A DNA stretch of 64,000 nucleotides, taken from NCBI RefSeq assembly GCF_030384885.1, contig NZ_CP128613.1, one strand, 5' to 3'. The DNA is from Escherichia coli (GTDB taxonomy: Bacteria; Pseudomonadota; Gammaproteobacteria; Enterobacterales; Enterobacteriaceae). A program made the translations under genes and the position numbers. The notes beneath the pieces were generated by a model. It was given only the letters and a program-made list of their open reading frames with translations. It was not told the origin of the DNA and did not search any database. This document shows, in pieces, positions 46,554 to 48,020 of this stretch; the stretch's first letter is position 1; every line of letters begins with the position of its first letter.

Positions 46554-48020
46554 ATGCTACGTATCGCTAAAGAAGCTCTGACGTTTGACGATGTTCTCCT
46601 CGTTCCTGCACATTCTACCGTTCTGCCGAATACTGCTGACCTCAGCACCCAGCTGACGAAAACTATTCGTCTGAATATTCCTATGCTTTCCGCAGCAATG
46701 GATACCGTAACGGAAGCTCGCCTGGCTATCGCTCTGGCTCAGGAAGGCGGTATCGGCTTTATCCACAAAAACATGTCCATTGAACGCCAGGCTGAAGAAG
46801 TTCGCCGCGTGAAAAAACACGAATCTGGCGTGGTGACTGATCCGCAGACTGTTCTGCCAACCACGACGCTGCGCGAAGTGAAAGAACTGACCGAGCGTAA
46901 CGGTTTTGCAGGCTATCCGGTAGTTACCGAAGAAAACGAACTGGTCGGCATCATCACCGGTCGTGACGTGCGTTTTGTTACCGATCTGAACCAGCCGGTT
47001 AGCGTTTACATGACGCCGAAAGAGCGTCTGGTAACCGTGCGTGAAGGCGAAGCCCGTGAAGTGGTGCTGGCAAAAATGCACGAAAAACGCGTTGAAAAAG
47101 CGCTGGTGGTTGATGATGAATTCCACCTGATCGGCATGATCACTGTGAAGGACTTCCAGAAAGCGGAGCGTAAACCGAACGCGTGTAAAGACGAACAAGG
47201 CCGTCTGCGTGTAGGTGCAGCGGTTGGCGCAGGTGCGGGTAACGAAGAGCGTGTTGATGCGCTGGTTGCCGCAGGCGTTGACGTTCTGCTGATTGACTCC
47301 TCTCACGGTCACTCTGAAGGTGTTCTGCAGCGTATCCGTGAAACTCGCGCTAAATATCCTGATCTGCAAATCATCGGCGGCAACGTGGCAACAGCTGCAG
47401 GTGCCCGCGCGCTGGCAGAAGCCGGTTGCAGTGCCGTTAAAGTGGGTATCGGCCCTGGTTCTATTTGTACTACCCGCATTGTTACTGGCGTCGGTGTACC
47501 GCAGATCACTGCCGTTGCTGACGCAGTAGAAGCCCTGGAAGGCACCGGGATTCCGGTTATCGCTGACGGTGGTATTCGTTTCTCTGGCGATATCGCCAAA
47601 GCTATCGCTGCTGGTGCAAGCGCGGTGATGGTAGGTTCCATGCTGGCGGGTACTGAAGAATCCCCAGGTGAAATCGAGCTCTACCAGGGCCGTTCTTACA
47701 AGTCTTACCGTGGGATGGGCTCTCTGGGCGCGATGTCCAAAGGTTCTTCTGACCGTTACTTCCAGAGCGACAACGCTGCCGACAAACTGGTGCCGGAAGG
47801 TATCGAAGGTCGCGTAGCCTATAAAGGTCGCCTGAAAGAGATCATTCACCAGCAGATGGGCGGCCTGCGCTCCTGTATGGGCCTGACCGGCTGTGGTACT
47901 ATCGACGAACTGCGTACTAAAGCGGAGTTTGTACGTATCAGCGGTGCGGGCATTCAGGAAAGCCACGTTCACGACGTGACCATTACTAAAGAGTCCCCGA
48001 ACTACCGTCTGGGCTCCTGA
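46554..48020 (+). CDS. guaB: IMP dehydrogenase
   Basis: 488 aa from ATG 46554 ([14 protein letters not shown]...); catalytic loop [14 protein letters not shown] pair. Confidence 0.95.
46759..46767 (+). promoter_or_regulatory. DnaA box (TTATCCACA) inside the 5' part of guaB coding region
   Basis: Perfect 9-mer TTATCCACA about 205 bp downstream of guaB start; an intragenic DnaA box in guaB is described in the literature. Confidence 0.5.

Follow-up and report, generated by a model that had tools for sequence, protein, structure and literature searches.

A consensus DnaA box within Escherichia coli guaB is probably a by-product of coding for a conserved enzyme motif

Introduction

The DnaA box of guaB is a known element. 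Tesfa-Selase and Drabble described it in two papers, of 1992 (Mol Gen Genet 231:256) and of 1996 (Eur J Biochem 241:411), which are referenced in PMC11317965, PMC2885671, PMC8203912, and PMC12371093. Its recovery from a further genome carries little weight as a discovery, given that the literature has covered it since 1992. As it is cited in later work, the 1992 paper reported a response of gua expression to DnaA (repression), and the 1996 paper, by its title, reported specific binding of purified DnaA to the guaB box in vitro. All of the DnaA-regulon reviews that we found cite these two papers for the placement of guaB among the DnaA-repressed genes. The promoter of the gene (PguaB) depends on an UP element, has PurR and DnaA sites that overlap the core promoter, and is down-regulated by DnaA (PMC2885671).

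A DnaA box in a transcribed region has also been described at asnC, where, according to the citing literature, bound DnaA was proposed to stop elongating RNA polymerase (Schaefer & Messer 1988, 1989, as cited in PMC11317965). The asnC box is located where the gene ends, in its terminator region, beside mioC and oriC. The 1989 work of Schaefer and Messer reportedly found the DnaA roadblock to be effective in one orientation of the box only.

The occupancy of DnaA boxes in vivo was mapped in 2024 by ChIP-seq of tagged DnaA in strain MG1655, and only 16 stringently selected regions were called as bound (PMC11317965). Binding in vivo was predicted by a "double DnaA box", in which two boxes are 2-3 bp apart; this spacing is required for the cooperativity in vivo, and one extra base pair abolishes it. 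DnaA was not detected within guaB, the guaB site is absent from the 2427 best matches to the double-box motif, and it was concluded that guaB is probably outside the DnaA regulon (PMC11317965). This is the only genome-wide in vivo map of DnaA that we found, and a search for further E. coli maps gave nothing more on guaB. Because the regions were called stringently and DnaA was tagged, the map could overlook a single box that is occupied weakly or transiently.

The guaB box in the window

We analysed a window of 64,000 nucleotides from an E. coli chromosome (contig NZ_CP128613.1). The features of the gua locus are listed in Table 1, in which the coordinates of guaB, guaA, and xseA are those of the RefSeq annotation of strain 2013C-4282 mapped directly onto the window. 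The GuaB protein scored 668.1 bits against the IMP dehydrogenase equivalog TIGR01302 (cut-off, 481.5). A long antisense open reading frame that overlaps guaB (46557-47972, minus strand) was discarded as a mechanical artefact of the listing of reading frames.

Table 1. Features at the gua locus, in window coordinates
Feature	Position	Strand	Remarks
xseA	45025..46392	-	divergent from guaB; context only
Degenerate DnaA box TTATACAGA	46501..46509	-	7/9 match to TTATCCACA; overlaps the -10 hexamer
-10 hexamer TATAAT, guaB promoter	46505..46510	+	from the sequence; invariant in 34 species
Degenerate DnaA box TTAACCACT	46527..46535	+	7/9 match; in the guaB leader; box-like by sequence only
guaB (IMP dehydrogenase, 488 aa)	46554..48020	+	RefSeq annotation of a near-identical strain; TIGR01302
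Perfect DnaA box TTATCCACA	46759..46767	+	9/9 match; within guaB, on its coding (non-template) strand; same 9-mer as in the published guaB box
guaA (GMP synthase)	48089..49666	+	downstream of guaB, co-transcribed

When both strands of the window were searched, the 9-mer TTATCCACA was found as a sole perfect copy, which qualifies as a DnaA box by this 9-mer or by its relaxed form, TTWTNCACA. The box is offset by 205 bp from the A of the guaB ATG (nucleotides 206-214) and lies 3' of PguaB, i.e., inside the transcription unit, as a roadblock-type site would. It occupies the first seventh of guaB, a gene of an essential pathway. In frame, it is divided as TT-ATC-CAC-A across Phe69 (TTT), Ile70 (ATC), His71 (CAC), and Lys72 (AAA), and the encoded peptide is part of the IMP dehydrogenase motif GIGFIHKNM. 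Relative to the transcription start deduced below, the box is placed at about +242 to +250. The gene that any roadblock at this site would affect is guaA.

The original prediction placed a perfect box in guaB, about 205 bp into the gene and downstream of TATAAT, and the window sequence and the guaB coding sequence bear out each of these points. Its remark that annotation pipelines miss the site also holds, as RefSeq has only the coding sequence at this locus, and the earlier description to which it referred, of an intragenic DnaA box tying guaBA to DnaA, corresponds to the work of Tesfa-Selase and Drabble (1992, 1996). The gene, the 9-mer, and the position about 200 bp into guaB are the same as those of the K-12 box in these papers. 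There is no difference of substance between the two, although the lineage of the window is closest to strain 2013C-4282 and not to K-12.

The surroundings of the box differ from those of the sites bound in vivo. The double boxes of purH, polA, nrdA, DARS2, datA, mioC, and oriC (PMC11317965) share the perfect TTATCCACA unit with guaB, but they have a second box in direct orientation at 2-3 bp, and nearly all of them are intergenic. The guaB box is intragenic, lacks a ChIP-seq peak, and has no partner: every 9-mer at a distance of 1-4 bp upstream or downstream has 5-8 mismatches (5 in the best and 8 in the others). The guaB box also lies early in its gene, whereas the asnC box is at the gene end in a terminator region; no terminator-like hairpin was found near the guaB box in 46250-46900. 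A search of 46300-47000 gave no match to an Rfam family.

Occurrence of the box in E. coli and by chance

A 901-bp region around the promoter and the box was matched in 5425 of 5426 complete E. coli genomes and was 95-100% identical in 5423 of them. The region of strain 2013C-4282 was 100% identical, and the next best genome was 98.7% identical. An identical 28-30-mer around the box was present in 5028 genomes, and in another 382 the box was unchanged next to a flanking AAC-to-AAT substitution. The box is thus intact in at least 5410 of the 5426 genomes and is fixed in the species; four variant genomes that we sampled had all kept it. We dropped fixation as a sign of function, because divergence within the species is 1-2% and few of the flanking synonymous sites vary, which makes it uninformative.

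The number of DnaA boxes in the window did not exceed the chance expectation in either the perfect or the relaxed form. Dinucleotide-preserving shuffles contained a mean of 0.39 perfect TTATCCACA per 64 kb, with at least one copy in 33 of 100 shuffles, and the relaxed consensus TTWTNCACA occurred 5 times in the window against 5.36 expected. Scaled to 4.6 Mb, the former value corresponds to about 28 perfect boxes by chance. In MG1655, 32 perfect sites have been counted, and merely 13 of them are inside DnaA-bound regions (PMC11317965). This chance figure is comparable in magnitude to the number of perfect boxes that are unbound (19). Therefore, a class of perfect boxes that are unbound and at chance level exists.

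Comparison across species

Species-representative genomes were scanned with the GuaB protein, and 80 loci were obtained from Enterobacterales and a few Pasteurellaceae. The codon alignment comprised 79 guaB sequences, including that of the window, and thus 78 other species. The peptide FIHKNM is invariant in all 79 sequences, and the presence of the box is decided by three synonymous positions, namely, the third bases of Phe69, Ile70, and His71. A perfect TTATCCACA is found at the box position in 26 of the 79 sequences (25 of the 78 other species), including E. albertii, several Citrobacter, and Kluyvera. In a further 16 sequences the position reads TTATTCACA, which still fits TTATNCACA, and in the remaining 37 the core is broken by TTC or CAT.

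Conservation of the box beyond the coding constraint was not found in these 79 sequences by parsimony, codon entropy, or the joint occurrence of codons, although tests of this kind have little power at the short evolutionary range of Escherichia and its close relatives. The codon entropies at Phe69, Ile70, and His71 (0.75, 0.98, and 0.94 bits, respectively) were mid-range among comparable guaB columns, for which we took all those with conservation of 95% or more (9 for Phe, 24 for Ile, and 8 for His). Fitch parsimony on a neighbour-joining tree gave 13, 20, and 19 changes at the three deciding sites against a mean of 15 at 56 comparable sites, and three random comparable sites would sum as low with P = 0.81. 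The codons of the box did not co-occur to a significant extent: the column frequencies predict 23.3 perfect and 40.0 relaxed boxes, and 26 and 42, respectively, were observed (Fisher p = 0.27). Among all guaB 9-mers, 17.7% were conserved at least as well as the box; the few guaB 9-mers of like degeneracy behave as the box does. The three deciding sites thus drift at ordinary rates, and the perfect box has consequently been kept in just 25 of the 78 species.

A naive null model, based on the gene-wide guaB codon usage of each species, suggested an enrichment of the box, with 10.1 perfect and 17.6 relaxed occurrences expected against 26 and 42 observed. We rejected this enrichment, as the naive model ignores shared ancestry and also the next base, which strongly sets the choice of the Phe codon. 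Neither the column-matched nor the parsimony test gave an excess. At the conserved Phe positions of guaB, TTT was used in 40-62 of the 79 sequences before a purine and in only 3-8 before a pyrimidine. Codon 69 (TTT, followed by A) obeys this guaB-wide rule and behaves as Phe codons before a purine do elsewhere in the gene. The codon-context effect is strong, with TTC in 71-76 of 79 species at the conserved Phe codons before C or T.

Promoter and leader of guaB

The -10 hexamer of PguaB and its flanks are invariant in 34 aligned sequences from Enterobacteriaceae, Serratia, and Yersinia, and the stretch GCAATCGGTTACGCTCTGTATAATGCCRCGGCAATATTT is nearly invariant across these closer species. Conservation of regulatory DNA is therefore visible at this locus, but it does not extend to the intragenic box. 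The candidate -35 element TAGATG (46482-46487), located 17 bp upstream of TATAAT, is poor (3/6 match to TTGACA), and an A/T-rich tract that resembles an UP element lies upstream of it. A consensus promoter scan did not call the TATAAT hexamer. Published PguaB reporter fragments end at +36 (PMC2885671). From the position of the -10 element and the reporter end just before the ATG, we infer that transcription starts at about 46517-46518.

The degenerate box TTATACAGA is probably the DnaA site over the core promoter that is known from the literature (cf. PMC2885671), an equation that we draw from its location. It and TTAACCACT were the only box-like sequences found near the promoter.

The leader of guaB contains an 8-bp inverted repeat, GGCAATAT (46516-46523) and ATATTGCC (46545-46552), the 3' arm of which stops two bases short of the ATG. 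Both arms are invariant in the 34 sequences from Enterobacteriaceae, Serratia, and Yersinia, while the loop varies by an indel of approximately 11-14 nt. Folding of 46518-46565, which begins two bases into the 5' arm, gave a modest hairpin (-6.7 kcal/mol, z = -1.1). The repeat could affect translation initiation or mRNA stability.

Interpretation of the intragenic box

The guaB site is probably a fortuitous single DnaA box that arose as a by-product of coding for an enzyme motif and is neither detectably occupied nor selected as a regulator in vivo. The box most likely exists because the invariant Gly-Phe-Ile-His-Lys of the IMP dehydrogenase motif happens to be encoded with TTT-ATC-CAC-AAA, a common and context-favoured choice of codons that reads as TTATCCACA. 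Purified DnaA is reported to bind this box in vitro, as it should bind any 9/9 box. In the cell, the box is isolated inside a transcribed gene without a partner for cooperative binding, and in such a location it would be neither stably occupied nor able to act as a conserved regulator of guaBA. It may add, at most, one unit to the chromosome-wide pool of sites that transiently titrate DnaA. This reading draws on the sequence and its frame, on the lack of both a partner box and additional evolutionary constraint, and, from the literature, on the binding in vitro and the absent ChIP-seq signal. The box thus seems to be without significant regulatory effect in vivo, and a regulatory role there is doubtful.

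Several points speak against a fortuitous box. The 1992 study, as later cited, reported a response of gua to DnaA, and the 1996 study, by its title, reported specific binding; ChIP-seq with 16 stringent regions may miss weak occupancy; and the box, carried by at least 5410 of 5426 E. coli genomes, is fixed in the species and recurs in E. albertii, several Citrobacter, and Kluyvera. In the classical alternative, DnaA on the intragenic box acts as a roadblock attenuator that halts elongating RNA polymerase approximately 240 nt into the transcript. Abundant DnaA would then lower guaBA output, coupling guanine nucleotide synthesis to the replication initiator. Such a mechanism is consistent with the listing of guaB, or of the gua operon, as repressed by DnaA, which later papers take from Tesfa-Selase and Drabble (1992, 1996), with the arrest of RNA polymerase attributed to DnaA at asnC (Schaefer & Messer 1988, 1989, as cited in PMC11317965), and with the influence on read-through reported in the literature for datA box 2. 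The guaB box itself is a 9/9 match on the non-template strand of a transcribed region and is fixed in E. coli, and a function confined to Escherichia and its closest relatives would evade the comparative tests. However, there is no ChIP-seq signal within guaB (PMC11317965), a partner box is absent, as is a terminator-like structure that would aid release, and the box is not extra-conserved in the 78 other species, while the promoter is conserved. We regard the classical roadblock as unlikely. A narrower version of this 1990s hypothesis, which would not introduce a new type of element, is a site restricted to Escherichia, Citrobacter, and Kluyvera that serves, depending on the conditions, as a DnaA roadblock or assists the promoter. 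It would be occupied only at high levels of free DnaA (slow growth, replication arrest, or DnaA overproduction) and thus would have escaped a single ChIP-seq experiment; we consider it improbable.

Two other roles are less likely than a roadblock. In line with the initiator titration model, the intragenic box might be maintained as a high-affinity chromosomal buffer of free DnaA. Experiments support a titration of DnaA by chromosomal TTWTNCACA boxes (PMC12371093), and high-affinity boxes bind both ATP- and ADP-DnaA according to the literature. However, the boxes reported to be enriched surround oriC and not the gua locus (PMC12371093), the guaB box bears no selective signature, and one box among hundreds would have a negligible individual effect. 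Selection for titration is accordingly very improbable. Least likely of all is cooperative or looping repression, in which the intragenic box would help DnaA to fill TTATACAGA at the -10 element and TTAACCACT in the leader and would thereby repress initiation. These two 7/9 boxes do exist about 230-260 bp upstream of the intragenic box, a DnaA site over the core promoter has been described along with down-regulation of PguaB by DnaA (PMC2885671), and DnaA oligomerises and binds strong and weak oriC sites cooperatively (PMC11317965). Nevertheless, the documented cooperativity in vivo needs a spacing of 2-3 bp, no ChIP-seq peak was reported at the guaB promoter or in the gene (PMC11317965), and the conservation of the promoter box is inseparable from that of the -10 element itself. 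A fortuitous box remains our preferred reading.

The original prediction was to be refuted by a failure of DnaA to bind the segment in vitro or in vivo. Binding in vitro has been reported, as the title of the 1996 paper indicates, whereas none was detected in vivo (PMC11317965). The further claim of a functioning regulatory site is not supported, given the lack of ChIP-seq detection and of selection beyond the protein-coding constraint. In vivo mapping and the comparative test argue against counting guaB in the DnaA regulon on the motif alone. A perfect consensus box within a gene can come merely from the encoding of a conserved peptide, and caution is required on this account. As a filter for intragenic "regulatory" motifs, a test of the synonymous positions that decide a motif for constraint or co-selection is inexpensive and generally applicable.

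Other observations in the window

Two matches to the relaxed consensus, TTATACACA (50843-50851, plus strand) and TTTTCCACA (50939-50947, minus strand), are separated by 88 bp from end to start in the very AT-rich intergenic region between yfgH and yfgG. The pair is probably an effect of composition; no ChIP-seq peak has been reported in this region (PMC11317965). An 8/9 box-like sequence, TGATCCACA, is located at 46296-46304 (plus strand) within the 5' coding part of the divergent xseA gene.

The window is otherwise 99.98% identical to strain 2013C-4282, but approximately 8.5 kb of that strain is absent at window positions 44165-44492 (compared with 35675-44490 in 2013C-4282). The absent stretch takes in a gene of the SinI family and the greater part of an 8 kb adhesin gene in the interval from sinH to xseA, and two short fragments of the stretch are left at the junction. 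As a result, window positions upstream of 44167 are offset by 8493 from the 2013C-4282 record. The window has an intact hda gene (61849-62550), which encodes the DnaA inactivator; in the RefSeq record of 2013C-4282 the gene is annotated as frameshifted, because a G-run (near window position 61920) is one base shorter there. This difference probably reflects sequencing or assembly rather than biology.
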